Part shown: in pieces, positions 42,876-64,000 of the stretch
How the letters are laid out: every line of letters begins with the position of its first letter
Position numbering within the stretch: the stretch's first letter is position 1
Assembly: GCA_046347625.1 (NCBI GenBank)
Contig: JAXMFU010000001.1
Location: 671,512-735,511 of the forward strand
Direction of reading: 5' to 3'
DNA: 64,000 bases
Source of the DNA: Candidatus Competibacteraceae bacterium
GTDB lineage: Bacteria > Pseudomonadota > Gammaproteobacteria > Competibacterales > Competibacteraceae
Translations under genes and position numbers: made by a program
Notes under the pieces: generated by a model
The model's input: only the letters and a program-made list of their open reading frames with translations
What the model was told of the DNA's origin: nothing
Databases searched by the model: none

Positions 42876-43106
42876 CTAATCCTCTGCCGTCCGCTCCGTA
42901 AACGAGCGCCCGGCACGAGCCTGCTTGTAATCGTAATCGGGGGCAATGAGGTCACTGCCGAAGAGATCCCGCAAGTCCGGCCGCTTGCGGCTTGCCACCA
43001 GTTCACGCAGCGCAAGGTCTACCACTTCACGCTTGGTCTTGACCTGCGTCAGTTGCATGGTCTCGGTAACGAGTTGGTCATCGAGCACGATATTAGTACG
43101 CATCAT
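42876..43106 (-). CDS. vapB: VapB-family antitoxin.
   Basis: MRTNIVLDDQLV...TKREVVDLALRELV is the classic VapB N-terminus. Confidence 0.7.
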   Translation of the reverse strand: MMRTNIVLDDQLVTETMQLTQVKTKREVVDLALRELVASRKRPDLRDLFGSDLIAPDYDYKQARAGRSFTERTAED

Positions 43107-43479
43107 ACACCTCCTATATGTATTCTAGTAGGCAAGAGCGCTATGGATTTGCCCAAGGCTCAAGTAGGGGTGCTGCCGTTGAATTTTTTCTGCATCCCAA
43201 TGGTAAGCCAGCCGATCGAACACAACTTCTATGACCGTCGTCCGAGTACCGGTGAGATAAGGTACACCATCACTTGTCACGTCAATATGAGGATAGGCTG
43301 TTACGTGCGACTACATCCTCGTAGTTATGGCGATAGATGGTGCCCGCGCCGGCCATATCTTTCCATGCAATCGATGTATACCGTGCTTTCGAATCGCCGG
43401 GCAACAGGCGGCCGGAAAGAGCGATGCTTGCATTTTTTGTCATGGCTGGCTATCAATATATAGCGTCGGATAGCCAGGC

Positions 43480-46348: not shown

Positions 46349-47329
46349 TCAGGTCCGTCGCTTCAGCCGTGTTGTGACGGCAATTACCGCGAAGGTGGCA
46401 CTGCTGTAAAGCAGGTAAAGGACATGCAGGCCGGCGGCGCCGAACATAAACCGTGGGCCTCCACAGCGCGCGAAAAAGCGATACAAGCCGGCGTTGAGTC
46501 CCGCGATCAGAGCGAGTGCCAGCAGCGCGCCGACAGCGGCCCAGGGTCGGAACAGGCCGACCACCAGGCAACTCAGCGCGATCCAGGCGGCCAGGGCGCT
46601 CAAGCGACTTTTGCTGTCCAGATTCAAGTCATTGGGCAAGGTCCGGTCGCGCATAATCAACTCCGTCCAGGGAATGGCCCGGTCCCGAATATCGGCGCGC
46701 AACAGTCCGGTAAACGTCCATTCCTTCAGATGGGTCGCCTGTACGTCGGGACATAGGCGAATCCGATAGCCCGCCCGGCGCAGGCGCACGCCCAGTTCGA
46801 TATCCTCGATGGAAGGACGGAGATAGCTTTCATCGAAGCCGCCGACGACCATGAAAGCCTCGCGGCGGATGGCGCCGCAACCGGTCCAGAAGGTGCCGGC
46901 TTCGCGGCGGGCGTGCTGGTGGACATAGTGATGCATCAGGTTCTTATAGCGGGCTGTCAGGCTGCGCCCGGGTGGCACGGTGTCATAGGAACCCATCAGC
47001 GCGGCGACCTCCGGTTCGGCACTCAGATAATGCTCCATGAGAGCGACGGTATCCGGGTGAACCACCACATCGGCATCGAAGAAAAGCAGAATATCCCCTT
47101 GGGCGGCGGCGGCGCCGTGATTACGTGCCACGGCCGGTCCATGGGGAGCGCCGGGCAGGGAAATGACCCTGGCGCCCAGATTGCGCGCCACCTCCGCCGA
47201 GGTATCGGTGGAGGCGTCGTCGACCACGATAATCTCGTCCGGTTGCCGTCGTCCCGAACGCAAGCCCTGCAGACAGCGGTGCAGGTGGTCGGGATCGTTG
47301 TGAACGGGAACAATAGCGGACAATAGCAT
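46349..47329 (-). CDS. Family 2 glycosyltransferase.
   Basis: SAIVPVHNDPDHLHRCL ... IIVVDDASTD (DXD motif). Confidence 0.8.
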   Translation of the reverse strand: MLLSAIVPVHNDPDHLHRCLQGLRSGRRQPDEIIVVDDASTDTSAEVARNLGARVISLPGAPHGPAVARNHGAAAAQGDILLFFDADVVVHPDTVALMEHYLSAEPEVAALMGSYDTVPPGRSLTARYKNLMHHYVHQHARREAGTFWTGCGAIRREAFMVVGGFDESYLRPSIEDIELGVRLRRAGYRIRLCPDVQATHLKEWTFTGLLRADIRDRAIPWTELIMRDRTLPNDLNLDSKSRLSALAAWIALSCLVVGLFRPWAAVGALLALALIAGLNAGLYRFFARCGGPRFMFGAAGLHVLYLLYSSATFAVIAVTTRLKRRT

Positions 47330-47554
47330 TAATTTTTTCTCGTCAGTACTTTAAGGTTGCTAATTCTTCCGGTGAAATCAGGCGTAGTAACCATAGCAAA
47401 GCAAAGCCGGGTAAGCGGCGATAAGCAGCCGTACAGTAGCCCGTCGGTCCGACTGGAATACCGCAGTTGGAGTAATGATAAAAACAGGTAAACGGATGTT
47501 AGTGAACCGTTATAATAATAACCTGAAATCAGATTTACTGAGAGATAAGACGAT

Positions 47555-48412
47555 ATGAACAATATCAAGCTGTCACTGTTGCGCGGCATCTGCCAGATGC
47601 CGGCCTATGTGGCCTATGAGAAGGGGTTCCTGAAGGATGAAGGATTGGAAGCGACATTGGAAATTGTGGCTACGGCCTGGCTGGTGCCCGAGAAGCTGGC
47701 CAGCGGTGATTGTCAGTTTGCCGTAATGCCGTGGACGCGAGTTGCAGCGGCCGAACTGGAAGGACTGCCGTTGGTATTACTGGCCGGTTCGGGATATGAG
47801 GAGGCGGCGATTGTCCTGCGCAATGGGATTTCCCCGGCGGAGGTCAGTAAGGTGGCCATTCCGCTGCGCGGCGGCATCAAGGACCTGACGGCAATGGGCC
47901 TGATCAAGTCGCTTGGCTGGGAAAACGTCCAGCAGATTCGGCAGCCGTCCGGCGACGGCGCAATCATCGCGTTGTTCGGGCAGGGAGCGGATGCCGCCTC
48001 AATGGTGGAACCGTACGCGACGATGATGGAAGGGTTAGGCGTGGGCAAAGTGATCCGGCGCACGGGCGATTTGTGGAAGGGGGCGCCAGGATGTTCGTTG
48101 GCAACGACAAAACCGTTCAGAGATCGCACGCCCGATGTGGTGGAAGGTGTGGTGCGGGCGTTCGCGCGCGGGGTCCAGTTTGTGAAGGAGAACCCACAGG
48201 AGGCTGCGGAGATGGCGTCCCGTTACATCGGTGTCAACAGCCGGTTCATCTGCGCGGCGTTGAAGAACAACCAGCCCAACGTGGATGCTATCCGTAACTC
48301 TCGAGCGATGGCGGAAATTCTCGGGCTGATGCAGCAACTCGGATACATCCACACGCTCCCGACCGACTACGTGGATTTAAGTTTTCTCGACAAAGTCGGC
48401 GCCATTCAATGA
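47555..48412 (+). CDS. NMT1/THI5-like substrate-binding-fold protein (SsuA/TauA-like) with no obvious signal peptide.
   Basis: GYLKDEGLE ... LASGDCQFAVMPW pattern of the NMT1/ABC substrate-binding-protein fold. Confidence 0.55.
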   Translation: MNNIKLSLLRGICQMPAYVAYEKGFLKDEGLEATLEIVATAWLVPEKLASGDCQFAVMPWTRVAAAELEGLPLVLLAGSGYEEAAIVLRNGISPAEVSKVAIPLRGGIKDLTAMGLIKSLGWENVQQIRQPSGDGAIIALFGQGADAASMVEPYATMMEGLGVGKVIRRTGDLWKGAPGCSLATTKPFRDRTPDVVEGVVRAFARGVQFVKENPQEAAEMASRYIGVNSRFICAALKNNQPNVDAIRNSRAMAEILGLMQQLGYIHTLPTDYVDLSFLDKVGAIQ

Positions 48413-49941
48413 GGCTGGGACGGATCAGGCAACTGGTGCACTTGGCGGGCGGCTTCCGCCGGTTTCTGCAAACGCCGGTCAGCTACGATCAAGCTGTCGG
48501 CGATATTCGCCGGCGGCTGGAAAACCGTGACCGCGATTTCAGCGCACTCGCCCAGCGACTGATCTACGACATTCCGTCCAGCCCATACCGCAAGCTGCTG
48601 TTGTGGGCCGGCTGTGACTGGGCCGATCTGTGCGCGAACGTGAAAACGCACGGTCTGGAGAAGACACTGAAACAGCTTTGGGATGCCGGGGTGTACCTGA
48701 CGTTGGAGGAATTTAAGTCGGGTATTCCCATCAGTCGTCCTGGGTTGAACATCGAGACAGGCGAGAGCGACTTCGATAATCCGTTTCTGGGCAGTCACCG
48801 CCTCGAAGGCGCCACCAGCGGCAGCCGGGGGCGGAGCACGCGGGTAGCTTACGACTGGGAGTTCATCACCGAGGAGAGCGCGCACGAGCTGTTGTTATAC
48901 ACCATGCACGGTGTGCTGAACGCGCCGACCGCACTTTGGTTTCCCGTCCCGCCCGGCATCGCCGGCATCCATAACCTGCTGATGAACCTCAAAATGGGAA
49001 GCGTACCTGAAAAATGGTACTCACACACACCGACCGACGCCATGCTGTTGGAAGCGCGGCTGGCACTCCGGTTCATTCACTGGATGAGCAGTTCACCGCG
49101 CCCCGAATTCGTCGACCTCTCCCAGGTAGACCAGGTTGTTGCCTGGCTCGCCGGCGCCTGCGCGAAGCGCGGCATCGCTGTGGTACGGACGTACGGCAGT
49201 TCGGCCGTTCGCCTCGCTCAAACCGCATTGGCGTCCGGCGTTGACATCAGCGGCAGCATCCTGTTCGCCGGGGGTGAACCACTCACTGAACATCGCCGGT
49301 GCTTTATAGCGTCCACTGGCGCGAAGGTATTCCCGCGTTACATCACCACCGAAAGCGGTCTTGTCGGCGCCGCCTGCCCCCATCACAACGGGACCGACGA
49401 CATGCATTTATACAAGGATCGGCTTGCTGTGATCGAACGGGAGGAACGGTTGTTCTATACATCTTTGACCGCGCACGCCGGCAAGATCATGCTCAATACC
49501 GATTTGGGTGATTGCGGGGAACTCACCACCAAGCCTTGCAATTGCCTGTTCGGTGAGTTGGGATTTGACCAGCATCTGTCAAACGTGCGCAGTAACCAGA
49601 AACTGACGGTGGAAGGGATGACGCTGTTGGCTTCCGAGTTGTACCGCGCCATCAGTGTTGCCGTCGAGACCGCCGGGGGCGGGCCGGATTCGTACCAGAT
49701 CCGGCAGAAGCAGGATGAGAGTGGATTGAGCAAATTGGTGATCACCCTCAGCCCTGATGTCAGCGGCGTGGAGGAGGCGAAGCTGGTTGAAGCCGTACTC
49801 GCTCACCTCCAGCGGGGCCGGCCGGCCAGTGCGCTGGCGGCGGATGTCTGGCGGCAGGCGGCGACATTGCAGATCGTGCGCGAGCGGCCGCAGTTGAGCC
49901 GGGGGCACAAGCTGTTGCCGGCGATCGAGAAAGGAACGTAA
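48409..49941 (+). CDS. PaaK / F390-synthetase / CapK-like adenylate-forming enzyme (ANL superfamily).
   Basis: A P-loop-like ATSGSRGRST and ...YITTESGLVGAACPHHNGTDDMHLYKDRLAVIE. It is a paralog of the ORF at 53025-54566. Confidence 0.6.
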   Translation: MRLGRIRQLVHLAGGFRRFLQTPVSYDQAVGDIRRRLENRDRDFSALAQRLIYDIPSSPYRKLLLWAGCDWADLCANVKTHGLEKTLKQLWDAGVYLTLEEFKSGIPISRPGLNIETGESDFDNPFLGSHRLEGATSGSRGRSTRVAYDWEFITEESAHELLLYTMHGVLNAPTALWFPVPPGIAGIHNLLMNLKMGSVPEKWYSHTPTDAMLLEARLALRFIHWMSSSPRPEFVDLSQVDQVVAWLAGACAKRGIAVVRTYGSSAVRLAQTALASGVDISGSILFAGGEPLTEHRRCFIASTGAKVFPRYITTESGLVGAACPHHNGTDDMHLYKDRLAVIEREERLFYTSLTAHAGKIMLNTDLGDCGELTTKPCNCLFGELGFDQHLSNVRSNQKLTVEGMTLLASELYRAISVAVETAGGGPDSYQIRQKQDESGLSKLVITLSPDVSGVEEAKLVEAVLAHLQRGRPASALAADVWRQAATLQIVRERPQLSRGHKLLPAIEKGT

Positions 49942-50648
49942 TGGCGGTAACGTTTGATCCTGAATCGTGGAACCGTGTGTACGACAATCCGCACGATATC
50001 AAGGATTTCGTATTCCGGCGCGGCGCGGAACTGGCGCGTGACAGCTGTCGGGAACTCATCCGGTCCGGTCACCGCTGGTTGGACCTCGGGTGCGGAACCG
50101 GCCAGTTGATGCAGTGGCTGAGTGAAGCCGGCGCCTGCGTAGTGGGGGTTGATCATGACCTGCGGATGATCGAGTTCACCCGCCGGAAAGCGGGGGGAGA
50201 ACTGCGCGGGGTGGTCGCACAGGGCGAACGACTTCCCTTTGGCGATGCCACGCTGGATGGTGTGGTCGCCACCTCCGTGATGGGCTGCATCCCGGAGGCG
50301 AAGTGCATTTACGCCGAAATGTACCGCGTGTTGCGCCCGCACGGTTGTGCGGTACTGACCTTTACCAATCGGGCCAGTTGGTTGCTGAAACTCAACTACC
50401 TCGCCACCCGGCCCGGCGGCACGAAGTATTACCTTTATGATGCGGCTGGTGTGACCCGGGAATTGGAGGGACTCGGTTTCCAGGTCCTCCAAACGCGATT
50501 CTATAACTTCGTGCTCCGTGCAGGTGGTATGTTATTGCCGCCTCCGTCGCTGGCTCGGCGGCTCGATGGCCTGGGTCGGCACCTGTTCAGCAGACATTGG
50601 GCAAGAAACTTCATCGTCGTGGCGCAGAAACGCTCTGCGGTCAGGTGA
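49941..50648 (+). CDS. Class I SAM-dependent methyltransferase.
   Basis: Contains LDLGCGTGQL and RLPFGDATLDGVV (Methyltransf_11 motifs). Confidence 0.8.
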   Translation: MAVTFDPESWNRVYDNPHDIKDFVFRRGAELARDSCRELIRSGHRWLDLGCGTGQLMQWLSEAGACVVGVDHDLRMIEFTRRKAGGELRGVVAQGERLPFGDATLDGVVATSVMGCIPEAKCIYAEMYRVLRPHGCAVLTFTNRASWLLKLNYLATRPGGTKYYLYDAAGVTRELEGLGFQVLQTRFYNFVLRAGGMLLPPPSLARRLDGLGRHLFSRHWARNFIVVAQKRSAVR

Positions 50649-50796
50649 GTGGGAGCGTGCCTTCCCAGCCGCGCTCCAACAGTGGGCATCGAGCCTGGGA
50701 AGTGGCTTCGACTCGGCAGCGTTCGATTTGCAACATCGGCTTGTTCGCCTGCCGGACCGTATTATGCAAGGTAATGCCGGCGATCCCGCACAGGCG

Positions 50797-53028
50797 TCAA
50801 CCTCCCTTCGGGCGGACTGCCCGGACCGCTACGAAATAACCCGTCAACCAGCGCGTCGGCCAGCGTGCCAGCCGCTCCCACTGCATCAGTCCTTCCAGAA
50901 ATCGCTGCTGCCGCGCCGCGTCGCCACGCCGCTGCACTGCGGCGGCCCGTTTCACGGCCAACACCCGTGGACAGTGCAACAATGCGCCCATTCTTCCGAC
51001 CTCGAACCCGGTTTCATGCAACAGCCGCCGCAGTCGTCTCGGTCCGCAGGTGACACCCACCTGGTACGGCATCAGCCCGAGCCGGTGCAGTAGCGCAAAC
51101 GGCAGCAGGTTGCGGATGGCGACCAATGGATTCGCCGCATTGTCCAGGGTCAACAGCAGTTCTCCACCCGGTCGCAACACCCGCCGCAACTCCCGCAGGC
51201 TGCCGATCAATTCCTCCTCGGTCTGAAAATGATCCAACGTCGAGTTCGATACGATGACGTCGAATACGCCATCGGTGAACGGTAACTGACGGACATCCGC
51301 GCCGATGCCCGTTCGGGCGGCCTGCACGGTGGTCAATGCGATATCGATGCCGACCACGAACCGGGCGCGGGAGACGAGTTCCCCGTATAGACCTCCGCCC
51401 ACCGCTTCGTCGAACAGGTCCGTCTTCAACACCCGTTCCACCGGCCGTTGCGGCCACCATGACGCCAGCCATTGTCGGTTCACCGCGTCGCTGTGCGCGC
51501 GCCAGAGCTTATCGGGTTGCGCCTGTCGCCAGTCAGCACCGACCTTGTCCCAATAAAGGAGATCGTCCGATACCGACGGTTTCGTCCCCGTTACCAGCGA
51601 CCAGGCCAATGCAATCTCGCGCCGACTGAACTCGCCCAGTACCAGATATCCGACCAGTACCAACAGCGAGAGGGCTACCAGCTTCACCACCAGCATTATC
51701 CCGCTCGCCGGCCAGAGCGTCGCCAGCGCAAAGGTACCAGTACACAACAGTACGCTGCGCCCTAAAGAGGCCGCTGGCGGCGCCACGCGCCATAACCGCC
51801 GGACCGCTCCCACGGCCAATGCCGCGCCGCACACCGTCAGGCCGGTCGTCACTACCGCCGCTCCCATGGCGCCAAAGGGTGGAATCAGCAACAGATGCCC
51901 GACCAGTCCCAGTGGTACCAGTGGCCCGGCAATGATGAAGGTCCAGTTTGCCTTTCCTCCCGCCGTCAGGATGCCATTCGTCACCCCCAACAAAACTCCC
52001 GCCACCGCACCGAAAATCAATACCGCCAGCAGCGGTCCGGCCGCGGCGAACTGCACCCCGGCGATCAGCCGCACGATCTCACCGGCCGCCCCGGCGCTCA
52101 ATCCCGCCAACGGCAGCAGCAGTAACACTAACCGCATCGCATCGCGCGCCATGAGGTGGGCGTGTTGTTCCCGGCCATCGCGCAACAGCCGCGTCAGCGT
52201 CGACAGCAGCAGCGGCGAGAGTGACGCCGCAAAAATCCCAAACACCACCGTCAAGTTCTGCGCCATGCCATAGATACCGGCCTGTGCGGCAGTCGCACCG
52301 AGCGCTTTCAACATCAACAAATCCAACTTGTCGAACACGCGCAGCGCCATCGCACACAGAAACAACGGTACTACCGCCTCCCACAACCGCCGTACCGGAA
52401 AATCCGCCGGGCCGAACAGCGCAGGACGGATGAACCGGCGGGCGATGGCCAACTCGATTACCGACGTGCCGATGCTGGCGACAATCGCGCCATTGACGGA
52501 GAACCCTGCCAGCCCGACCAGCGCCAGGACCAACACCAGCCGCACCGTCCAGCGGACGGCACTCAGCCAGGCGCGTTGACGGAATCCGCCGGTGCCGATC
52601 AAGATATTGCGGTGGGCGTGCGCGAGGCTGAAGAGCGGAATATCGATAGCGAACAAGCGCAGATACCCGGCCAGGGTCGGTTCGTCCAACAGGGCGGCAA
52701 TCGGCCCGGCCAGCGCCACCAGCAGCACGGCGCACGCGACGCTGACGCCCAGGTGCAGCCGCACCACCAGCGTGCCCACGGGCCGCCAGTCCGACACTTC
52801 GGCGATACACTTATACGTGGCGCGCGCGAATATCGCCGTGATGGTCCATTCGATCCAGGTGACCAGCGTTATCGCCAGCGTGAACAAGCCGTACCCGTCT
52901 GCACCGAGCCGCCGTGTCAACACTACCGTCGCGATCAGACCGGCTGGCAGGATCAATGCTTCGGCGAGGAACACGCGGACCGTGCCGTCCAGAATACGGT
53001 GGCCTGCGGCTGAAGGTCTAGGCTTCAT
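50797..53028 (-). CDS. Fusion protein: an N-terminal Wzx-like polysaccharide flippase (MOP/PST family, about 480 aa, roughly 12-14 transmembrane helices) joined to a C-terminal class I SAM methyltransferase domain.
   Basis: Long hydrophobic N-terminal portion. The C-terminal VVGIDIALT ... LPFTDGVFDVIVSNSTLDH ... LRPGGELLLT are methyltransferase motifs. Confidence 0.7.
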   Translation of the reverse strand: MKPRPSAAGHRILDGTVRVFLAEALILPAGLIATVVLTRRLGADGYGLFTLAITLVTWIEWTITAIFARATYKCIAEVSDWRPVGTLVVRLHLGVSVACAVLLVALAGPIAALLDEPTLAGYLRLFAIDIPLFSLAHAHRNILIGTGGFRQRAWLSAVRWTVRLVLVLALVGLAGFSVNGAIVASIGTSVIELAIARRFIRPALFGPADFPVRRLWEAVVPLFLCAMALRVFDKLDLLMLKALGATAAQAGIYGMAQNLTVVFGIFAASLSPLLLSTLTRLLRDGREQHAHLMARDAMRLVLLLLPLAGLSAGAAGEIVRLIAGVQFAAAGPLLAVLIFGAVAGVLLGVTNGILTAGGKANWTFIIAGPLVPLGLVGHLLLIPPFGAMGAAVVTTGLTVCGAALAVGAVRRLWRVAPPAASLGRSVLLCTGTFALATLWPASGIMLVVKLVALSLLVLVGYLVLGEFSRREIALAWSLVTGTKPSVSDDLLYWDKVGADWRQAQPDKLWRAHSDAVNRQWLASWWPQRPVERVLKTDLFDEAVGGGLYGELVSRARFVVGIDIALTTVQAARTGIGADVRQLPFTDGVFDVIVSNSTLDHFQTEEELIGSLRELRRVLRPGGELLLTLDNAANPLVAIRNLLPFALLHRLGLMPYQVGVTCGPRRLRRLLHETGFEVGRMGALLHCPRVLAVKRAAAVQRRGDAARQQRFLEGLMQWERLARWPTRWLTGYFVAVRAVRPKGG

Positions 53029-54566
53029 CCTGGCGCCGGGATGATTGGAAGATGTTTGCCGCGCTTGGTCAGTTGCGGTTCGGCGCGAATGACTTCGAGC
53101 AACCCGCTCTGTTTCCAGATCTGTGCCGAGAACTTGCCAGAGCCGTGTGCACGGCTAAGCGTGTCGAGCACGGCGCGGATAAACTGCGCTTCGTCCAGGT
53201 TTTCGAGACGGGGATGAATCGCCACCTTGAGGCGGGTCAGTTCACCTTGACCGTCGGTTTCCCAGAACTGGTAATCGTCAGGGCTGCCCCCCAGTTGCTC
53301 GATGAGCGCACCGATGATCTCGTCGAGATCGGTGGCGAGGATCGCCATCCCTTCACCGGTCAGCTTGTCCCGGCTACGAACGTTGACGACGTGGGTTTCC
53401 ATGCCCAAATCACCAAACGCGCAACTGCACCGGCGCGTCACCAGCGCACCGGTATCGCCGATGTCGGTGTTGAAAAGAACCTTACCGGTGTGTGGCGACA
53501 ATGATGTGAACAGGAAGCTTTCCGCCCGCTGAATCACCGCCAAGCGGTCGACGTAGATGTGCATGTCGTCGGCGCCGGTCCGGTACGGGCAAGCCGCGCC
53601 GATCAAGCCGGCCTCCGTTGCCGAGTAGCGTGGAAATACCCGCGCGCCGGTCGCTTCGATGAAGCGGCACCGGCGTTCGGTCAATGGTTCTCCAGCGCTT
53701 AAGATCACGCTGCCGCTAATGTCGAGCCCACGTTCATGCGCAGCTTGGGCCAGGCGCACGGCGGAACTGACATAGGTTCTGAGCAGCGGTGGTCCGACTT
53801 TTCTTTTTGTCGTCGCAATCCATTCAGCAACCCGACCGGCGTGGCTGAAATCCGCAAATTCGGGCCGGGGAAGCGGCTGCCCCAGCAGCCGGCAGCAGCC
53901 AAGCAGGTACTCCATTGCCAGCCGGTGCCTTGACAGCAAACCGCCAGCCTTCCAGTCGGTCTGCGAAAACCATTGCAGCGGCACGCGCCGAAACCGGACA
54001 TTCATCATCGCGCTGCTAACGCCGGCAATCGCCGGCAGCGTCGGTAACCACAACACCAGCGGTGCCGTGCGGACGCCGTGCAGTTCATTGAGAATCAATT
54101 CGTTGGCCGCCTGCTCGTGGAACAACGCCCAGTCATATACCACCCGCGAACCGTGCGAGCGGCTACCACTGGTTGTCGCTTCGAGACCGGTGGCCGTGAA
54201 AAATGGGTTATCGAAATTATCCTCACGCGGTTGCAGCCACAGCCCGGAACGCTGGATGGGCGTGCGCGCCTTGAATTCGGCCAACGACACGTATACGCCG
54301 GCATCGCGCAACTGCGCCAGCGTTGGCTCCAGCCCGTGTCGGCGGACGTTTTGTGCCAAATCACCGTACTCGCACCCGGCCCACGCCAACAAGGCGCGAT
54401 ACGGACTCGAGGGGTTGCCGTAGATATGCGTCTGCGCCAGGCGTAGAAACCGGCCGGCTCGGTCGGCCAGCCGCAGTTTAAGCGCCGCGACGGCTTCGGC
54501 ATAATTCAGCGGCCGGCGGATGAAGGCCGGCAATCCCCATGCCAGGCGCGCCAGTTGCCCAATCAC
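53025..54566 (-). CDS. Second PaaK/CapK-like adenylate-forming enzyme. The start was re-set to a GTG that overlaps the upstream stop (GTGA).
   Basis: Aligns along its whole length with the 48409-49941 protein (SSPYR.LL.WAGC, ATSGSRS.GSRV.YDW, FPRY..TE.GL.GAACP). The 589-aa ORF as listed would overlap the ALDH gene by 230 nt. Confidence 0.6.
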   Translation of the reverse strand: MIGQLARLAWGLPAFIRRPLNYAEAVAALKLRLADRAGRFLRLAQTHIYGNPSSPYRALLAWAGCEYGDLAQNVRRHGLEPTLAQLRDAGVYVSLAEFKARTPIQRSGLWLQPREDNFDNPFFTATGLEATTSGSRSHGSRVVYDWALFHEQAANELILNELHGVRTAPLVLWLPTLPAIAGVSSAMMNVRFRRVPLQWFSQTDWKAGGLLSRHRLAMEYLLGCCRLLGQPLPRPEFADFSHAGRVAEWIATTKRKVGPPLLRTYVSSAVRLAQAAHERGLDISGSVILSAGEPLTERRCRFIEATGARVFPRYSATEAGLIGAACPYRTGADDMHIYVDRLAVIQRAESFLFTSLSPHTGKVLFNTDIGDTGALVTRRCSCAFGDLGMETHVVNVRSRDKLTGEGMAILATDLDEIIGALIEQLGGSPDDYQFWETDGQGELTRLKVAIHPRLENLDEAQFIRAVLDTLSRAHGSGKFSAQIWKQSGLLEVIRAEPQLTKRGKHLPIIPAPG

Positions 54567-56374: not shown

Positions 56375-57516
56375 GCAGGGTTCGATTCCCGGTAAAGCGC
56401 GAACACGATGTCCGCGACCAACTCACCCATTTCACGGGTTCCGACCAGGCGTCCACCCAACTCCATCAAATCAGCCGTCCGCCAGCCTTGACGCCAGACT
56501 TGGTGCACGGCCCGTTCGATCGCATCGGCGGCATCGCTGAGACCGAAGCTTTCACGCAGCAACATCGCCACGGAAAGGATCTGGCCGGCCGGGTTTGCCA
56601 CATTCTTGCCGGCCAGGTCGTAGGCGGCGCCATGGTTGGTTTGATACGCCGCCGCGGCGCCGGGGGCAAAGTTGCCGGAGTAGGCCAATGCCCGCGACCC
56701 GAGTAATACCGCGCTTAGGTCGGCCAGCACATCGCCGAAAAGATTCGGCGCCACGATGACATCGAAGTCCCGGGCATGCTGAATCACACAATACGCGGCA
56801 TAATCGACGTTCAGCAACTGTAACTCGATACCCGCCGCGGCGGTAATTTCCAGCGCGCAGTCACGCCATAATTCGCTGATGGTCGGGATGCCGGCGTCTT
56901 TGTAGATGACCGTTAACCGGCCCCGGCGCCGACGGGCGATGCCGGCGGCGGCTTCGAGGATACGCCGCACGTCGGTTTCGGCGTAGGAAAAGTTGTGATT
57001 GGCCACGCGCGTTCCATCGGCTCGAGTGGTTTCGCTCCATTGGCCTTGGTAAATCCCACCGGCATTGTCGCGGATGATGATCAAATCCACGTTATCGCAG
57101 TATTCCGGTTTGAGCCGCGCCGTCAGGCGCAGTGCCGGGTCGGTTCGGACCGGGACAATTTTACAAAACAGATCGAACCGCCGGCGGAGGTCGTAGACGA
57201 AGCGGCCGCCGCCGGCGCCGTGCAACAGGGCGCCCCCATCGGCAAACACGTGACGGCAAAAATTCTCCACTTCAGCCGTCAGAGCGGCACCATGGGCCTG
57301 CTCGGCGGCGGTACCGATCAAGCCGCCGCGGCGAATAATAAAGCTGTATGGGCTGATGGTCTCCAGCGCCTGCAACACGGTGAGACCGGCACCGACGACT
57401 TCCGAGCCGACGCCTTCGCCGTCGAGCACGCCCACCAGATAGTGGCCATTGGAAGGCGACGGTTGGCGCTGACGACCGGGGATACAATCACTCCAGGTTT
57501 TGGCTTCAGGGTACAT
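56371..57516 (-). CDS. Isocitrate/isopropylmalate-dehydrogenase-family beta-decarboxylating dehydrogenase.
   Basis: NLFGDVLADLSAVLLGS is the signature of the IDH/IMDH family. Confidence 0.7.
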   Translation of the reverse strand: MYPEAKTWSDCIPGRQRQPSPSNGHYLVGVLDGEGVGSEVVGAGLTVLQALETISPYSFIIRRGGLIGTAAEQAHGAALTAEVENFCRHVFADGGALLHGAGGGRFVYDLRRRFDLFCKIVPVRTDPALRLTARLKPEYCDNVDLIIIRDNAGGIYQGQWSETTRADGTRVANHNFSYAETDVRRILEAAAGIARRRRGRLTVIYKDAGIPTISELWRDCALEITAAAGIELQLLNVDYAAYCVIQHARDFDVIVAPNLFGDVLADLSAVLLGSRALAYSGNFAPGAAAAYQTNHGAAYDLAGKNVANPAGQILSVAMLLRESFGLSDAADAIERAVHQVWRQGWRTADLMELGGRLVGTREMGELVADIVFALYRESNPA

Positions 57517-57562
57517 GCTGGCTTGTAGGTAATGTTATCTGGATGGCGTTATCTGGATGGCG

Positions 57563-59125
57563 CTATGCCTGGTGCGGATAGACGCCGGTCCATTGGGCCA
57601 ACTTCACTTCAAGGGGAAACTGGTGGAAACGTTTTTTCACCCGCAGGTAGGCAAGCGGATAATAAATCGAGGCAAGCAGACGAACGAGCCAATGAGTTTT
57701 CTTGTACGGCGTGACGAAGTTATTACGGATGGCCAGCGCCGAGGTGAAATGCAACATCCGAATGAGACTTTTCTGGTCGGCCGATAACCAGGGCGCGTAA
57801 CGATTGACGGTGCTGAAGTTGAAACTCACCCATTCTTCCAGCGCGGCGGGGACTTTCAATCCGTGCTGCACGGCGAGATCGAAATCGGCCATACCAGGGA
57901 ACGGGGTGAAGACGTTAAGGCGGGGGACCGCCGCCGGGTTGTCGGCGGCGAGTTGGAGGAAGAGATCGACGGTCTGGGCCAGTTCCTCCTGGGTCTCGGT
58001 GGGAATGCCCATCATGAAGAAATAATGCGGTCGGATATCGAAGCGGGCGAGGCGCCGATTGAAGCGTACGATGGCCGGGATGTCCTGCGGTTTGTTCAAT
58101 AACCCCAGGATGCGCGGGGACGCGGATTCGATCCCGATCATTAACCGCGTACAGCCGCCGTCGCGCAGGATTTGCAGTTCGGCGTCGGACAAGGCAGTCA
58201 GCACGGCGCTGTGGCCGTCGACTTTGGCACAATCGATGCCGAGGTTGAGTTCCTTGAGTTGCCGGAAAATGGCGAGAGCGCGTTCTTTCTTCCCGAAGAA
58301 GTTGTCGTCGGTGAAGATAAAATGCCGAATGCCGTACTCGTTGACGATGCGCTGGAGCCGCCGCACGGTCTCTTCGACGGAGAGCGCGCGCCAGGTGCTA
58401 TGGTAGGCGGCGGTGTTGTAACAGTACTGACAGTGGAACGGGCAACCCCGACTGGTTTCCAGGCTCAGGTGCGGTATGCCGGAAATCAACGGCATATAGT
58501 TGCGGATATCCACCAGATGATAGGCCGGAAACGGTTGTACGTTCAGGTCGATCAATGGCCTCGGCCCGGTCGAACGTGGAGTTCCGTCCGGTTTGTACCA
58601 GACTCCGCGTACCCCGCCCAGCGGCGCGCCGGTCTCCAGGGCCTGCACCAGTTCGAAGAATGTTTCCTCGCCTTCACCTTGTACCACAAGGTCGATGTGC
58701 TCATGGCGCAGCGTCTGTTCCGGCATCAAGGTGGGATGGATACCGCCCCAGACTACCGGTACGGAACTGTGTTGTTTCACCAGGCGGGAGGCTTCCAGCG
58801 CCGAGCGAATCTGCGGTCCGGTCATGGAGGTGACGCCAACACAAACCGGCTCGCGGCGCAGCTCCTCCAGGAGCAACTCGCGCCAGCGGCTTTCCAGCCG
58901 CTGATCGATAATGCGCACGTCGTAACCCGCCCGGTCCAACGGAGTTCCAATCGCCAGCAGACCTTGCGGCAACTCGACACGCGGCTGGACCGCACCGCCA
59001 AATCGATGGGCCGGCTGGAATAATACGATTCGTCGTGAAGTACGTTGATTCATGGTCGTCGGATTCATCGCCAATGCAGCGGTATCGCCCAGGCACGTGT
59101 GGAGCTGGTATACATAGTCACCCAC
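57563..59125 (-). CDS. B12-binding radical SAM protein. The true start is probably the internal Met near 59068.
   Basis: An N-terminal B12-binding region, then the CPFHCQYC radical-SAM cysteine triad. Confidence 0.8.
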   Translation of the reverse strand: MGDYVYQLHTCLGDTAALAMNPTTMNQRTSRRIVLFQPAHRFGGAVQPRVELPQGLLAIGTPLDRAGYDVRIIDQRLESRWRELLLEELRREPVCVGVTSMTGPQIRSALEASRLVKQHSSVPVVWGGIHPTLMPEQTLRHEHIDLVVQGEGEETFFELVQALETGAPLGGVRGVWYKPDGTPRSTGPRPLIDLNVQPFPAYHLVDIRNYMPLISGIPHLSLETSRGCPFHCQYCYNTAAYHSTWRALSVEETVRRLQRIVNEYGIRHFIFTDDNFFGKKERALAIFRQLKELNLGIDCAKVDGHSAVLTALSDAELQILRDGGCTRLMIGIESASPRILGLLNKPQDIPAIVRFNRRLARFDIRPHYFFMMGIPTETQEELAQTVDLFLQLAADNPAAVPRLNVFTPFPGMADFDLAVQHGLKVPAALEEWVSFNFSTVNRYAPWLSADQKSLIRMLHFTSALAIRNNFVTPYKKTHWLVRLLASIYYPLAYLRVKKRFHQFPLEVKLAQWTGVYPHQA

Positions 59126-59271
59126 GCTGCAGCGGGCGGTGTGGAGTTCGAATTCGGGTGCAGGCGGTGGTTCATAGCGATCGAGTCATCGTCTGAGCCG
59201 CAGTGTCGGGTCGGCCTGGATCGGCTGGGCGCCAATTTTAGTTTAAAGCGGAAACGGGTGGAAACGTTTTT

Positions 59272-60507
59272 TTACCTGCGGTGAGCGGCTGAAGTCGCCC
59301 TGATTTTCTCGATTAGCGTGAGGTAATGTTGCAGATGGACTTCCGCCGTCCATTTCGCCTGATAAGCCCGGTATGCAGCGTAACCCAGATCATCCCGGAG
59401 CGCCTTGTTCTCCAGCAATCGCTCCATCGCAGTCAGCAGTTCCGACTCGTTCGTATAGCTGAAACCACCGCCGCTCTCTGCGATCAGCTCCGGCATCGCC
59501 CCTAAATTTCTGACAATCACCGGCGTTCCTTGTTGAAAGGCTTCCAGAATTACCAGCGGGCAAACTTCGAACCATAGGGAGGGCACGATCAGTGCCATCG
59601 CCTGCTGATAGCAGGCTTGCAACCGGCCGGCCGATAGATGACCCAGAAAGCGGATGTTAGTGCTGCCGTCGGCCAACCGCCGTAAGAAGGGTTCGTAATC
59701 ACCGGTACCGGCAATCAGCAGGCGCGCCCGCGAATAATTCCGGAAAAGAGGAATAAGCGTTTGCACTCCTTTGATTTTTTCCAAACGCCCTACATAGAGA
59801 AAATAGGGCACTTCCATGCTATCCCCCACCCATTCCGTTCCTGGTACTGCCGGTTCTTCGGAAATGAAATTGGGCAGATGTACGCCTGGCAGCTCGAGTC
59901 CTCTTTGCCGCAGAGTCTGTGCGCTGAAAAGGCTGGGTGCAATCAGGGTATCCACATGCGCCAGCATTCTCTCTAAAAGTCTGCCATAGCGCCACCATTG
60001 CGGCGGGCGCTTATGGACCAGTGTGCAGGGCAGACAAGTGGGATGCGCGCAGACCGCTCGGTTGAATTTGAACAGCACATGGGCAGGGCAGACCAGCCAG
60101 TAATCATGCGTTGTCAGGAGCTTGATACCCTGGCCATAGGCCAGTATCCCTGGACCACCGACTAAAGAAATGTTGTGATAATGGATGACGTCGAAACCTT
60201 TTTGCAGGATCGACTGGATACGGGCCCGCTTGAAAAAGGGGAGTCCGGTCTGTTGCGTGGCCAGAGGAGACAGTGGACCGAAGCGGCTCCTGAGTCCATG
60301 GATTGTTACATTGGGGTGGTCGTCATAGGTACCTGCCGGCTCCCGTCCCGCCAGCAGTAAATAGGAATCGATACAGTGGATTACCTCCACCTGATGCCCG
60401 CGCCGCGCCAGTTCGTTGCTCAGGCGGCGCACGAAAATCCCGTCTCCACCGAAGTTATAGGGAGGATAGAAGGTAGTAATCATGCAGAAGCGCAGTGACG
60501 TTCTCAT
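59272..60507 (-). CDS. Family 4 glycosyltransferase.
   Basis: The N-terminus MITTFYPPYNFGG and the C-terminal EVCPLVILEAFQQGTPVI form the GT4 fold. Confidence 0.8.
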   Translation of the reverse strand: MRTSLRFCMITTFYPPYNFGGDGIFVRRLSNELARRGHQVEVIHCIDSYLLLAGREPAGTYDDHPNVTIHGLRSRFGPLSPLATQQTGLPFFKRARIQSILQKGFDVIHYHNISLVGGPGILAYGQGIKLLTTHDYWLVCPAHVLFKFNRAVCAHPTCLPCTLVHKRPPQWWRYGRLLERMLAHVDTLIAPSLFSAQTLRQRGLELPGVHLPNFISEEPAVPGTEWVGDSMEVPYFLYVGRLEKIKGVQTLIPLFRNYSRARLLIAGTGDYEPFLRRLADGSTNIRFLGHLSAGRLQACYQQAMALIVPSLWFEVCPLVILEAFQQGTPVIVRNLGAMPELIAESGGGFSYTNESELLTAMERLLENKALRDDLGYAAYRAYQAKWTAEVHLQHYLTLIEKIRATSAAHRR

Positions 60508-61115
60508 GTTATTGCAGCTGCCGTTATATAGAAAACCTGTAATATAATGACTGATAGTTATCGGTAAAACCCCTGAAAAGCTGCGTCGCGGTCGCCGGTT
60601 ATGATGTTCGGCAAGCAGCTAACAGATTTCAAGAACTACTACTGTTGAGTCCCCGACTCGCGAGGGGTTGAAGTGACTTCCTGTCCCTCCAACCCCATCG
60701 CGTTGGCTGGCACTTCGGTGTTAGCGACTCAACCAGCTCACCGGGGCAACCCGGTAACCGTTACCCGTGAATCTGCTCTAGGGACGGTTGACCCTAGCGC
60801 GGTGTGTAGTCACTCCGGGATGCTTCACCAGTCCCGGACTCTGAGGCTGGCGGTTAAACAGTACGCGATCGGGAGACGACAGTGCCGCCACCAGGGATGG
60901 CCCTACGGGGGCAAAAACCACGGGCTAACTGAGCGAGGTGACCGTTACCGGCTTCGACCGGGCTGGGGAGTAATCCCTACCCTGACCCCGACCAGGGGGC
61001 CTCACGGCCACACGTCGGGGACAAACTTTTTCAGCCGCGGGACGCCCAGGCTAACGCCTATGGCTTAAACCCGTGGGGTCGTCACTCATCCCTGAGTTCC
61101 TTCGAGGATAATAGC

Positions 61116-62012
61116 ATGGATATGATCCTGAATTTTGCGCCGACCGGCATGATTCCAACCAAACAGATGACGCCTTATGCAGCTGTCGGCATTCAGGAAA
61201 TTATCGAAGATGTGCATGCCGCCTATGAACTGGGCATCACCCTCGTCCACCTCCATGCCCGGGACGAGGTGACCGAAGAGCCAACGTATAGGGCCGACGT
61301 GTACGCGAAGCTCATCGAGGGTATCCGCGAATTTTCCAAGGATCTCATCGTCTGCGTTTCCCTCAGTGGGCGCACCTTTCAGGAATTCGAAAAACGAGCC
61401 GCGCCGCTTCAACTTGATGGCGATCTCAAGCCGGACATGGGAAGCCTGACGCTCAGTTCGGTCAATTTTCCCCAGGTAGCCAGTGTGAATTCCCCGCAAA
61501 TGATTCAAGCCCTGGCCACCGAGATGCAACGACGCGGCATTCTGGCGGAATTGGAGGTCTTCGACGTGGGCATGATCAATTATGCAAAGTATCTGGAAAG
61601 CAAGGGCTTATTGCAACCGCCGCATTATTTCAATCTGCTGCTGGGCAGTATCGCCGGTGCCCAGGCCGATCTACTGCCTGCCGGCCTCATGATTCGCGAT
61701 CTACCACCGGGTTCCCTGTGGAGTTTTGCCGGCATCGGTGACGATCAACTGACAATGAACGCACTGGCCGTCGCCGCCAGCGGCGGCGTGCGCGTCGGCC
61801 TCGAGGACAATATCTGGTATGACCGCGGCCGCACTCGGCTGGCGCGCAATATCGACCTGGTGCGTCGTATCCACCAGTTGGCGGAGGTCTTGGAACGACG
61901 GATCATGCCACCCCAGGAACTCAGGCGATGCTTGCAACTCGAGGCAGGCAACGGTCGTTATGGCCGCCGCAGCGCCATGGCAGCGAATGCGAAGGCGCCG
62001 GCGATCGCTTGA
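61116..62012 (+). CDS. BKACE-family (DUF849) beta-keto-acid cleavage enzyme; 3-keto-5-aminohexanoate-cleavage-enzyme-like.
   Basis: N-terminus MILNFAPTGMIPTK, TIM-barrel length, and a GLEDN motif. Confidence 0.75.
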   Translation: MDMILNFAPTGMIPTKQMTPYAAVGIQEIIEDVHAAYELGITLVHLHARDEVTEEPTYRADVYAKLIEGIREFSKDLIVCVSLSGRTFQEFEKRAAPLQLDGDLKPDMGSLTLSSVNFPQVASVNSPQMIQALATEMQRRGILAELEVFDVGMINYAKYLESKGLLQPPHYFNLLLGSIAGAQADLLPAGLMIRDLPPGSLWSFAGIGDDQLTMNALAVAASGGVRVGLEDNIWYDRGRTRLARNIDLVRRIHQLAEVLERRIMPPQELRRCLQLEAGNGRYGRRSAMAANAKAPAIA

Positions 62013-62066
62013 CATCCGCTGGATCGCCCCGGTCATCAATCAACCGGACCGATCCAATTACTGTCC

Positions 62067-63431
62067 CTAGCGATTCTCCGCCACCAATCGGCGCAATAAA
62101 CTGTTATAAGCCTGCCCCATTCGATCCGGTGAGAATTCGTTCCGGACCAGCCGTTGGGCGTTCTGCGCAAGTTGTGTTTGCAAGGAGACGTCGGTCAACA
62201 GAGTCACAACGGCTGACGCTAGAGACCGGCGATCGCCCGGTCGATAACACAGACAGGTTTTGTGATCCTGTACCAGTCTGGCGTCGGGATGTGCCGCAGA
62301 GGCAACAACCGGCAGGCCGGCGGCGAAAGCTTCCATGAGAACCAGCGCTACCGGGTCGGTGAAAGGCGAGTAGAAGAACAATAGATCGTGCTCGGCGTAA
62401 GCGGTTTGGAGTGCCGCCCGCTCTACCGGCGGACGCAAGGTTACGATATCGTTCAGGCCGTTACGCCGGATAGTCGCAAGGATGTTGTCGCGATAACCCG
62501 CCGGGCCTTGGGCAGCGATCACCGTCAAAGTGAGTTCTCCGACCGCCTGACGAATCGTGGGAAGCGCATCCAACAGTAAGTGGAGCCCTTTTTCCCGCGA
62601 CAGCCGTCCGACCCATAACAGGCGATTGCGCCCGCTGGCAAGACGGGGCAATGGTTTGGGCAAAGGGACGCTAAAGTAGATAATGTGCGCTCTTTCCTTG
62701 GCTAAGCCGGCCTGGATGGCTTCTTCATACCACTGCCGATTGGCAAACACGGCCAGCTTGATAGCGTGCGGCGAGACCCGCTGCAAGAGAAAAGGATGGA
62801 ACGAGCGGCGCAGACGTCGCCGCACCAGCACCTGCAACCCTGACCACCACCAGGCCCGGAGTTCCATGGCTAAGGCATTGAGACCGATGAGCATCACCCG
62901 TGGATGTCGCCGGGTAGCCAGCGCCATGAGGCCCGGCGCATCGATGGTCGTGGTGCTTAGCAGAACGGCATCATGGCGTTTGCTGTCGGCCAGCAGCTGT
63001 TCCATGCGGTAGAGGTTATCCGAAGCATGCTTCCAGAACGAACCCGGCATAAACAGAGTTTCGACAAGATAGCGAATCTGCACAGGCAACCTTTGCCCCA
63101 GCCACGCAGCCCATGTCCAGCGGCTCAGTACCGCCAGCTTGTTGGAAAAATTGGTTGGCTGCAACGCCAAGACTGAATCCGGTTTTTCTCCCACCGTGGC
63201 AGTCGAGTATACGGGGACATCGACTTCCCATCCCCGGCTCCTCAGTTGGGCGGCCAGATCATCCAGCGCGATCGTCAAGCCTCCTTTTTCTCCCGGGGAA
63301 AGCGCTTGCCCGATGAGCAAGGCTCGCAACGGTCTTCTTGCCGAGACAGCCGGATCGAGACCGGTCATCGTGCCGGTTCCGTTATCCCTGTCAGGGCTAT
63401 CGATGATCGGAGGCGTAGCAGGGCTGGTCAT
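62067..63431 (-). CDS. Family 4 glycosyltransferase, 454 aa.
   Basis: C-terminal LMEAFAAGLPVVASA ... motif of the GT4 fold. Confidence 0.75.
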   Translation of the reverse strand: MTSPATPPIIDSPDRDNGTGTMTGLDPAVSARRPLRALLIGQALSPGEKGGLTIALDDLAAQLRSRGWEVDVPVYSTATVGEKPDSVLALQPTNFSNKLAVLSRWTWAAWLGQRLPVQIRYLVETLFMPGSFWKHASDNLYRMEQLLADSKRHDAVLLSTTTIDAPGLMALATRRHPRVMLIGLNALAMELRAWWWSGLQVLVRRRLRRSFHPFLLQRVSPHAIKLAVFANRQWYEEAIQAGLAKERAHIIYFSVPLPKPLPRLASGRNRLLWVGRLSREKGLHLLLDALPTIRQAVGELTLTVIAAQGPAGYRDNILATIRRNGLNDIVTLRPPVERAALQTAYAEHDLLFFYSPFTDPVALVLMEAFAAGLPVVASAAHPDARLVQDHKTCLCYRPGDRRSLASAVVTLLTDVSLQTQLAQNAQRLVRNEFSPDRMGQAYNSLLRRLVAENR

Positions 63432-63433
63432 GG

Positions 63434-64000
63434 CTACAAGCCCTTCACACCCGTTTTAACCACACTGGCGGGAACACCGGCCACCATGACATTCGCCGGC
63501 ACGGATTTGACGACGACGGCACCGGCACCGACCACGGCTTCCGCTCCAACCGTGAGATGATCGCGGATGACGGCGCCTACGCCGATGTAGGCACCTTCGC
63601 CGATCTCCAGCGCACCGGCCAGGTTGGCACCCGGCCCCAGCGTGCAGAAGGGATGGATGTGATTATCATGCCCTATCAGGCAACCGCGATTGACGATGAC
63701 GTGCGCGTCGATGGTCGTATTGGGTGAAACGACGACACCGGCGTTTACCACGCAGCCGGGGGCGATAGTGGCACGGCGCGAAATCACTGCCGAGGGGTGA
63801 ATGACCGCCGTGAACCGATAGCCCCGCGCCTGCATGATCTCGATGAAACCCCGCCGGCGGGTGCTGACGATGCCGGCCACCAGGTGGCACTCAGTCGGCG
63901 TGAACGGCAAATCATCTGCCCTAAAGACGGGCAGACCATCAAGCGTCGTTCCCGCCGGCGGCGGATCGAGGTTAACGACAAAGCCCAGGGGTTGAAAGCC
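63434..64000 (-). CDS. NeuD/PglD-like sugar N-acetyltransferase (left-handed beta-helix). Partial: the frame stays open to the window end.
   Basis: Hexapeptide repeats (IAPGCVVNAGVVV...IGHDNHI...). Upstream in the same frame, ...VVNLDPPPAGTTLDGLPVFRADDL matches the NeuD N-terminal domain. Coordinates in this stretch may be off by one. Confidence 0.7.
   Translation of the reverse strand, partial: GFQPLGFVVNLDPPPAGTTLDGLPVFRADDLPFTPTECHLVAGIVSTRRRGFIEIMQARGYRFTAVIHPSAVISRRATIAPGCVVNAGVVVSPNTTIDAHVIVNRGCLIGHDNHIHPFCTLGPGANLAGALEIGEGAYIGVGAVIRDHLTVGAEAVVGAGAVVVKSVPANVMVAGVPASVVKTGVKGL

Follow-up and report, generated by a model that had tools for sequence, protein, structure and literature searches.

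What does a bacterium make with a cluster that sets three glycosyltransferases and a flippase among adenylate-forming ligases, dehydrogenases and a hydrolase? The question is raised by positions 46349-64000 of a stretch of 64,000 nucleotides (nt), hereafter the window, from a metagenome-assembled genome (MAG) of Candidatus Competibacteraceae. The best explanation is that this region forms the left part of a locus that makes a lipid-linked surface glycoconjugate, either the repeat unit of a polysaccharide or the head group of a glycolipid. The locus is a mosaic of two cassettes, A and B, plus generic glycan genes (a GT2 and two GT4 glycosyltransferases, a NeuD-family acetyltransferase and a sulfotransferase). 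More interesting than the locus itself are the unannotated families that its cassettes contain, namely a clade of ligases resembling phenylacetate-CoA ligase (PaaK), a binding-fold protein and a hydrolase-aldehyde dehydrogenase (ALDH) fusion, which travel together across about ten phyla and which the genome scan returned from MAGs only.

According to open reading frame (ORF) calls and domain scans, the region holds 13 tightly packed genes in four transcription blocks:

46349-47329, minus strand: GT2 glycosyltransferase (PF00535, 98.6 bits)
47555-48412, plus strand: NMT1-like protein, cassette A (PF13379, NMT1_2; PF09084, NMT1)
48409-49941, plus strand: PaaK-like ligase 1, 510 amino acids (aa), cassette A (profile against PDB; AlphaFold2 (AF2) model and Foldseek)
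49941-50648, plus strand: class I S-adenosylmethionine (SAM) methyltransferase MT-I, cassette A (Methyltransf_11, 67.9 bits)
50797-53028, minus strand: Wzx-type (MOP/PST) flippase fused to methyltransferase MT-II (Polysacc_synt, 40.6 bits; Methyltransf_11, 50.1 bits)
53025-54566, minus strand: PaaK-like ligase 2, 513 aa, cassette B (same basis as ligase 1, to which it is 47% identical)
54563-56374, minus strand: isochorismatase-ALDH fusion, cassette B (Pfam, 117 and 345 bits)
56371-57516, minus strand: IMDH-like dehydrogenase, cassette B (Pfam Iso_dh, 229.5 bits)
57563-59125, minus strand: B12-binding radical SAM enzyme (Pfam B12-binding and Radical_SAM)
59272-60507, minus strand: GT4 glycosyltransferase GT4a (Glycos_transf_1 and Glyco_transf_4)
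61116-62012, plus strand: BKACE-family enzyme (Pfam BKACE, 255 bits)
62067-63431, minus strand: GT4 glycosyltransferase GT4b (Glyco_trans_1_4 and Glycos_transf_1)
63434-64000, minus strand: NeuD/PglB/VioB-family sugar N-acetyltransferase, cut by the window end (TIGR03570, matched by the full-length copy on contig L001)

The initial annotation had counted 14 genes; the sole further ORF (60673-61068, 131 aa) sits in a divergent promoter gap and has no Pfam or NCBIfam match. The domain calls of that annotation were all borne out, by Pfam matches except for the PaaK-like pair, which was assigned by profile searches against the PDB and by AF2 models compared through Foldseek. The ligase 2 ORF as called (53025-54794) is overlong, and a 17-sequence alignment together with the gene call in a close relative (L094) places the real start near 54566.

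The NMT1-like gene, ligase 1 and MT-I form, in that order, a plus-strand operon from which the GT2 gene diverges. This operon converges with a long minus-strand operon that is transcribed in the order GT4a, B12 radical SAM enzyme, IMDH-like dehydrogenase, isochorismatase-ALDH fusion, ligase 2 and Wzx-methyltransferase fusion. Genes overlap by 1-4 bp at both junctions of the plus-strand operon and at the junctions from the IMDH-like gene through the Wzx fusion, the 4-bp overlaps being at 48409, 53025, 54563 and 56371. The BKACE gene (plus strand) diverges from GT4a, and the NeuD-like and GT4b genes are a separate minus-strand pair. The left border of the cluster is aroB (45153-46244); the right border lies beyond the window, the NeuD-like gene running past position 64000. 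A 4.5-kb metagenome contig with an identical GT4b gene (L001) adds about 1.5 kb past the window end and carries the complete NeuD-like gene (212 aa), then a Sulfotransfer_1 gene at 393-1319 of the contig (about 64175-65101 in window coordinates).

A clade of PaaK-like ligases and its two cassettes

In 86 loci (cited here by L numbers), the six-frame ORFs lying no more than 10 kb from the ligase were searched with the window proteins as queries; greedy picking of ORFs under-counts families, and our counts rest on six-frame phmmer and tblastn searches. The cassette A trio of NMT1-like protein, ligase and MT-I was found together in 38 of the 86 loci (38 matches each for the NMT1-like protein and MT-I, largely in the same loci), and Wzx and/or MT-II, with the window fusion as query, in 23. 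Matches were fewer for GT2 (13 loci), GT4a (11, mostly weak), the B12 radical SAM enzyme (10), the isochorismatase-ALDH fusion (five), the IMDH-like dehydrogenase (three) and NeuD (one, weak), and there was none for BKACE apart from a 41-aa fragment in L092. The initial annotation had read the genes as a single cluster; as such a whole, the 13-gene block is conserved in none of the 86 loci, and only sub-blocks of it recur.

By sequence and model, both ligases are genuine, divergent adenylate-forming enzymes of PaaK type with an intact nucleotide-binding loop and catalytic lysine, because invariant motifs, profile matches to the PDB and Foldseek matches agree. Across the alignment, the T136-S137-G138 loop, GGEPLT, R310-Y311..E315, a CxC pair and the C-terminal K501 are invariant; the nucleotide loop, the YxxTE-type motif, the C-terminal lysine and the fold matches place the proteins in the PaaK-like branch of the ANL superfamily. 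The ligase profile found phenylacetate-CoA ligase in the PDB at E 1.2e-10, and AjiA1 and a PaaK-like ligase at E of about 1e-10, in the core region only; PaaK1/2, the phenylacetate-CoA ligase 9s3l and AjiA1 are the closest structures. The AF2 model of ligase 1 (pLDDT 87.4) was best matched by PaaK1 and PaaK2 (E 1e-16), and lower down by ClxA, acetyl-CoA synthetases and the amide-bond synthetase McbA. The window ligases thus share fold and core motifs with PaaK-type ligases (PaaK1/2, ClxA, AjiA1 and enzymes annotated as CapK), from which they differ in that they are just 14-16% identical to the solved structures and carry an extra N-terminal helical region of about 130 residues. The CapK of the Staphylococcus aureus cap1 locus is one that we presume to be a ligase of this type. 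Neither paralogue matched Pfam or NCBIfam at E <= 0.01, save for BagE/FevW at E 0.0019 and 17 bits, and no model of either collection matched 17 clade members, two of which touch AMP-binding at E 0.016. Assignment as PaaK proper is ruled out by the missing match to the curated PaaK and AMP-binding models.

A profile search of 1.84 billion proteins returned 980 representatives of 50%-identity clusters at E <= 1e-30, and all the named matches are "hypothetical protein". In a scan of species representatives, with one genome per species, 80 loci were kept; all 80 come from MAGs, and they span about ten phyla (Acidobacteriota, Verrucomicrobiota, Nitrospirota, Planctomycetota, Chloroflexota, Myxococcota, Actinomycetota, Methylomirabilota and others). 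Neighbor-joining ordering groups ligase 1 with the NMT1-linked ligases of L093, L002, L009 and L013, and ligase 2 with the fusion-linked ligases of L021, L028 and L033, which lie in an IMDH-like/isochorismatase-ALDH context; a third, deeper group has neither an NMT1-like nor a fusion partner. Some ligases of the clade (P0101, P0108; 757-779 aa) carry a class I SAM methyltransferase domain of their own as a fusion, which reinforces the coupling of ligase and methyltransferase. In six to eight loci, the new clade is accompanied by another PaaK/CapK-like ligase that is more canonical (TSGTTGKP loop, weak match to CapK_C, about 466 aa), for example at 12917-14317 of L006 and 12430-13836 of L032.

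In cassette A, the stop codon of the NMT1-like gene overlaps the start of ligase 1. The source annotates the NMT1-like protein as the substrate-binding protein of an ABC transporter, a role that we reject since the protein is without signal peptide, lipobox or ABC partner genes: its N-terminus (MNNIKLSLLRGICQMPAY) leads directly into the first beta-strand of the fold, and no ABC permease or ATPase gene adjoins it in the window, L002, L004, L006, L090 or L093. Foldseek matched its AF2 model (pLDDT 89.7) to the staphylococcal binding protein 3un6 (TM 0.84), to TauA (0.77-0.80) and to SsuA, NrtA and Thi5 (0.69-0.76), with further matches to the cytoplasmic regulatory domain of CmpC and to PqqT. 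On this modelled fold, the protein probably binds a small ligand, likely an anion, in the cytoplasm, and may possibly act on it as an enzyme. Across phyla it is 63-81% identical, against 37-72% for the adjoining ligase (homologues including P0241-P0360). Chorismate chemistry of MqnA/MqnD type, an idea prompted by the nearby aroB, the isochorismatase domain and a PDB match to 1zbm, was rejected because 7an9 and 7ahr (each titled "enzyme of biosynthetic pathway", and presumably MqnA) ranked behind TauA, SsuA and NrtA (TM 0.66-0.68 against 0.80), the amidase-type cysteine is kept in the isochorismatase-like domain, and aroB is not co-conserved.

The methyltransferases of this cassette are variably joined to their neighbors. 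MT-II, which usually accompanies cassette A and is the C-terminal domain of the Wzx fusion in the window, is a free-standing gene in 10 loci, and in the closest relative, L093, it is fused to GT2 and 83% identical to the window copy over 260 aa; the ligase and NMT1-like protein of L093 are 72% and 81% identical to those of the window. In L023 (Planctomycetia), MT-I, the NMT1-like protein, ligase, MT-II, GT2 and Wzx are encoded in one single-strand operon. About half of the cassette A loci also carry AsnB-like and Mur-ligase-like genes, and further ones add B12 radical SAM, ELFV dehydrogenase, HMGL-like and pyridoxal phosphate (PLP)-dependent enzymes; the window holds no AsnB, Mur ligase or ELFV dehydrogenase. 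In a large Acidobacteriota/Thermoanaerobaculia subclade (L090 6033-13601; L042-L050, L074, L087) the order is AsnB-like, Mur-ligase-like, NMT1-like, ligase and methyltransferase, with a P450 alongside in several loci and flanking MacB-type ABC exporters, an operon that looks like a biosynthetic cluster for a small molecule or a peptide-like compound. Near the amino-acid-type genes linked to cassette A, L002 encodes a 106-aa protein without Pfam match at 21127-21447, as do L009, L018 and L025. Small ORFs were considered as a carrier protein or precursor peptide and set aside: the 106-aa ORF looks like a two-helix membrane protein, and a 79-aa ORF occurs only in near-identical loci.

Cassette B joins the IMDH-like dehydrogenase, the fusion and ligase 2. 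The isochorismatase domain of the fusion bears an Asp9-Lys93-Cys126 triad that is invariant in 16 fusion proteins. True isochorismatases are cysteine-less, and a nucleophilic cysteine in this fold marks the amidase/cysteine-hydrolase type; an isochorismatase sensu stricto, that is, a vinyl-ether hydrolase, was rejected on account of the triad. The ALDH domain keeps Asn290, Glu387 and Cys421, which are invariant; the models that match it best, none of them above cutoff, describe semialdehyde dehydrogenases with acidic substrates. Since the catalytic residues of hydrolase and ALDH are kept and the ALDH models are of the acid-semialdehyde type, the end product of cassette B is probably a free carboxylic acid, which the next ligase would naturally take as its substrate. 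The fusion family returned 2131 matches, with an identical architecture in all of the top 120 homologues. The IMDH-like dehydrogenase is a member of the Iso_dh superfamily (isocitrate/isopropylmalate dehydrogenases) only, and LeuB (3-isopropylmalate dehydrogenase) was discarded at 215.8 bits against a TIGR00169 cutoff of 353.2. In L088, L089, L091, L092 and L094 the IMDH-like gene lies upstream of the fusion gene, and its stop codon usually overlaps the start of the latter; the order IMDH-like, fusion, ligase is kept in L088, L089 and L094. The cassette is present in a Myxococcales MAG, in an Acidobacteria contig and in the close relative L094, where the fusion protein is 86% identical and the next gene, partial at 589 aa, is probably a Wzx fusion as in the window; the IMDH-like/fusion pair is found in places with no ligase. 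The intergenic gaps of the locus contain no ORF with a carrier-protein domain, and so the ligases would either form CoA thioesters or couple their acids directly. Such thioesters could serve the NeuD-family transferase, yet this enzyme is not co-conserved with the ligases.

The product of the locus and competing explanations

The initial annotation had proposed an exported glycoconjugate, and the link to flipping and export found support: MT-II is fused to Wzx here and to GT2 in L093, ligases adjoin GT4 genes, and L092 combines the two kinds of gene. This last locus (Thermodesulfovibrionia, Nitrospirota) encodes GT4a (59.5% identical, beside the ligase, IMDH-like and fusion genes), GT2 (41.6%), the IMDH-like dehydrogenase (54%), the fusion (50%) and the ligase (37%), plus a Wzx. 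In the window, GT2, GT4a, GT4b and Polysacc_synt all score above the Pfam cutoffs. A Nitrospirae locus has the NMT1-ligase pair amid GT2, GT4 and ABC-2 transporter genes, and at least five loci of the ligase group without partners (L055, L058, L062, L077, L079) have a GT4 gene as the next one after the ligase. We conclude that the cassettes are portable tailoring modules, wired into glycoconjugate synthesis in the window and in many other loci. The assembly and attachment of an acyl or amino-acid-like substituent, as suggested in the initial annotation, is plausible from the sequences; carboxylates are the substrates of ligases, Mur-ligase-like and AsnB-like enzymes and the product of ALDH, which suggests a carboxylate-centered decoration.

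We give somewhat better than even chances to a lipid-linked glycan or glycolipid that ATP-dependent ligases acylate or amidate and that is also methylated and flipped. In this scheme, GT2, GT4a and GT4b would build the sugars on a lipid carrier, and the NeuD-family enzyme would N-acetylate an amino sugar. The IMDH-like dehydrogenase and the hydrolase-ALDH fusion of cassette B would convert a precursor to a free carboxylic acid, which ligase 2 would adenylate and couple as an amide or ester, either directly onto the glycan or via CoA. In cassette A, the cytoplasmic binding-fold protein would hold its small, probably anionic ligand for ligase 1, which would form a second amide or ester bond. MT-I, MT-II and the B12 radical SAM enzyme would methylate the product, and the Wzx domain fused to MT-II would flip the finished unit, such that modification and export are coupled.

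Several observations weigh against this scheme. A GT2 or GT4 gene lies within 10 kb in only 35 of the 86 ligase loci (locally iterated profiles), a modest excess over a rough, uncomputed expectation of 20-30%, and both cassettes also occur in loci without a glycosyltransferase. No glycosyltransferase was found within 10 kb in the Acidobacteriota/Thermoanaerobaculia subclade of cassette A, nor near cassette B in the Myxococcales MAG, where it stands alone. Neither a phosphoglycosyl transferase, nor Wzy, nor chain-length or export genes were seen in 46349-64000 plus the 1.5 kb of L001, the locus being cut there. BKACE, GT4b and NeuD are not co-conserved with the ligases and are local additions. 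The matches of the NMT1-like protein to TauA, SsuA, NrtA and Thi5 are generic to the fold and point to no particular ligand, nor do the sequences point to a particular acid or acceptor.

The same loci lend themselves to another product, a free small molecule (an amide or ester natural product made independently of non-ribosomal peptide synthetases, or an osmolyte) that cassettes A and B would make and the MOP protein would export, with the glycosyltransferases either separate or glycosylating the small molecule. The Thermoanaerobaculia operons with their AsnB-like, Mur-ligase-like and P450 genes and MacB exporters fit such a product, as do cassette B alone in Myxococcales and an Acidobacteriia locus that has just the three cassette A genes and a hydrolase. 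L002 and L032 further encode HMGL-like and PLP-dependent enzymes along with ELFV dehydrogenase, flavin reductase and radical SAM enzymes, a set typical of the synthesis of unusual amino acids, and the closest solved ligases, ClxA, AjiA1 and McbA, belong to small-molecule pathways. We nevertheless hold this product to be unlikely: MT-II is fused to Wzx or GT2, ligase-GT4 pairs occur in several loci, the operons of L023 and L092 interleave glycosyltransferases with cassette genes, and GT4a heads the same overlapping operon as cassette B in the window.

Still more doubtful is a decorated membrane glycolipid in place of a polymer, with a hopanoid-, carotenoid-, ceramide- or diacylglycerol-type acceptor and the Wzx-like protein as its flippase. 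GT2 has a C-terminal membrane segment and matches the GT21 model of ceramide glucosyltransferases above cutoff (PF13506, 40.6 against 21.7 bits); GT4 enzymes often make glycolipids, and the best models of the B12 radical SAM enzyme (BchE, HpnJ and a lipid-associated family, all below cutoff) are in part lipid-related. The generic GT21 Pfam model excepted, however, the lipid-related matches lie far below the family cutoffs, among them the weak NCBIfam matches of GT2 to HpnI, HpnB and CruG and of GT4 to MGlcDAG and GlcN-PG synthase. The failure to see Wzy, a phosphoglycosyl transferase or Wzz in the recovered part would fit a glycolipid as well, but in a locus cut at the window end the missing Wzy and phosphoglycosyl transferase are uninformative, and polysaccharide loci typically carry sulfotransferases and acetyltransferases of the NeuD family. 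A specific variant, the hopanoid side-chain pathway (HpnI/J/K), was discarded at 120.8 against 577.6 bits for HpnJ and 25 against 310 for HpnI. A chance juxtaposition of metabolic genes (IMDH-like, ALDH, BKACE and an ABC-type binding protein) with a few glycosyltransferases, which the isolated BKACE, GT4b and NeuD genes, the ABC annotation in the source and the housekeeping aroB abutting the cluster might invite, is hardly credible and already contradicted by the co-occurrence data, given the 4-bp overlaps in two operons, cassettes that recur in the same order in about ten phyla, an NMT1-like protein with neither signal peptide nor ABC partners, and domain fusions that tie the parts together.

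Coming back to the acylated or amidated lipid-linked glycan, we tentatively extend it to a proposal in which we have a good deal less confidence. The ligase clade, the TauA/NMT1-fold protein and the two methyltransferases would together be an undescribed modification system, widespread and so far seen only in uncultured bacteria. The CapK-like ligase would receive a small anionic amine or acid from the binding-fold protein and couple it to a lipid-linked sugar, methylation and flipping would be physically coupled, and the cassette would be reused with Mur-ligase-like and AsnB-like enzymes for peptide-like decorations.

Accessory genes and flanks

Beyond the cassettes, conservation is uneven. 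GT2 orthologues occur in L092, as given above, and in L038 (44%). The B12 radical SAM enzyme is a probable C-methylase or rearrangement enzyme; its homologues adjoining ligases in L038 and L025 are 49-59% identical, and copies of the L002 type (L002, L018, L032) are more distant. GT4b has only weak relatives elsewhere, and a metagenome scan with it gave one weak relative. The BKACE enzyme belongs to its family (beta-keto acid cleavage) by the Pfam match, and falls short of the equivalog for Kce, the 3-keto-5-aminohexanoate cleavage enzyme (212.8 bits against a cutoff of 382); an exact look-up of the protein gave no record. The BKACE fragment of L092 (5670-5795, weak Pfam match) lies immediately upstream of the GT4a orthologue and may be a remnant of a BKACE-GT4a neighborhood as in the window. 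The full-length NeuD-like copy scores 192 bits with TIGR03570 against a cutoff of 160.8, the only NCBIfam subfamily cutoff that was passed. The sulfotransferase has distant homologues in the ligase neighborhoods of L013 (there between Wzx and MT-II), L082 and L078, and this recurrence hints at a sulfated product.

A scan for promoters and terminators found sites in numbers no higher than in shuffled sequence, and an Rfam scan found just two tRNAs, both far from the cluster. At 32917-33059 (minus strand), a tRNA-Cys (gca) abuts a second tRNA-like element (Rfam, 44.4 bits) with a two-base anticodon, to which ARAGORN assigned no identity. Two ORFs of 226 and 236 aa at 42783-44190 (plus strand), in the interval from an MFS_3 transporter gene to a UPF0047 gene, have odd-looking translations and no Rfam match, and are putatively coding.

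Described systems and significance

The initial annotation had recognized no described pathway in the gene set, and this stands: the NCBIfam matches in the window are all below cutoff, and a literature search gave no counterpart. It had likewise set aside pseudaminic and legionaminic acid synthesis, rightly so, as NeuD is alone in the window and the other 12 genes lack NeuB/PseI synthase, dehydratase, aminotransferase and CMP-transferase domains; a nonulosonic acid pathway (neuraminic, pseudaminic or legionaminic) is rejected within the window, where NeuD is the single member of the required set. By analogy, the locus may work like a Wzx-dependent glycan locus with tailoring genes. It shares with Wzx/Wzy loci for O-antigen, capsule or exopolysaccharide the GT2 and GT4 enzymes, the Wzx flippase, an acetyltransferase of the NeuD/PglD/VioB kind, methyltransferases, a sulfotransferase and the mosaic organization. 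It differs from them in its flippase fused to a methyltransferase and in that phosphoglycosyl transferase, Wzy and Wzz/Wza are unseen in the recovered part; unlike the described loci that we found, it has two unmodelled PaaK-like ligases, a cytoplasmic binding-fold protein and the IMDH/hydrolase-ALDH module.

Three systems offer partial parallels. In the type 1 capsule (CP1) of S. aureus, taurine is amide-linked to GalNAcA (PMC12043029). An ATP-dependent ligase in a glycan locus could form such an amide, a task that CapK ligases presumably serve in CP1, and Foldseek placed the taurine-binding protein TauA first for the NMT1-like protein. This likeness is generic to the fold, and no uronic-acid dehydrogenase gene was seen in the window. 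In Vibrio cholerae O1, perosamine is acylated with tetronate through RfbK-O, which include an acyl carrier protein and LuxC/LuxE-like enzymes. The resemblance here is one of concept and of description only: dehydrogenases build a dedicated acid, which an AMP-forming ligase activates for attachment to an amino sugar of the O-antigen; unlike V. cholerae O1, the window locus encodes no carrier protein. For the "gatekeeper" MOP flippases of TacF type, export of the lipid-linked glycan is reported to depend on its decoration state (PMC13385700). A methyltransferase-flippase fusion would be a physical version of such coupling between decoration and export, a conceptual parallel in view of the fact that TacF, unlike the fusion in the window, senses phosphocholine and has no enzyme domain.

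Competibacteraceae are abundant glycogen-accumulating organisms in wastewater granules, whose properties are set by matrix polysaccharides. One such polysaccharide, granulan, comes from granules dominated by Competibacteraceae (PMC3707108), and our literature search found no described gene cluster for granule matrix polymers such as this one. Three families without annotation emerge from the present analysis: the ligase clade with its roughly 980 clusters, a binding-fold protein that has been mis-annotated as an ABC component, and a hydrolase-ALDH fusion with more than 2000 relatives. Assigning a chemistry to them would annotate thousands of genes, and might bring to light a new class of decorations on glycans or lipids in Acidobacteriota, Verrucomicrobiota, Nitrospirota and Planctomycetota.

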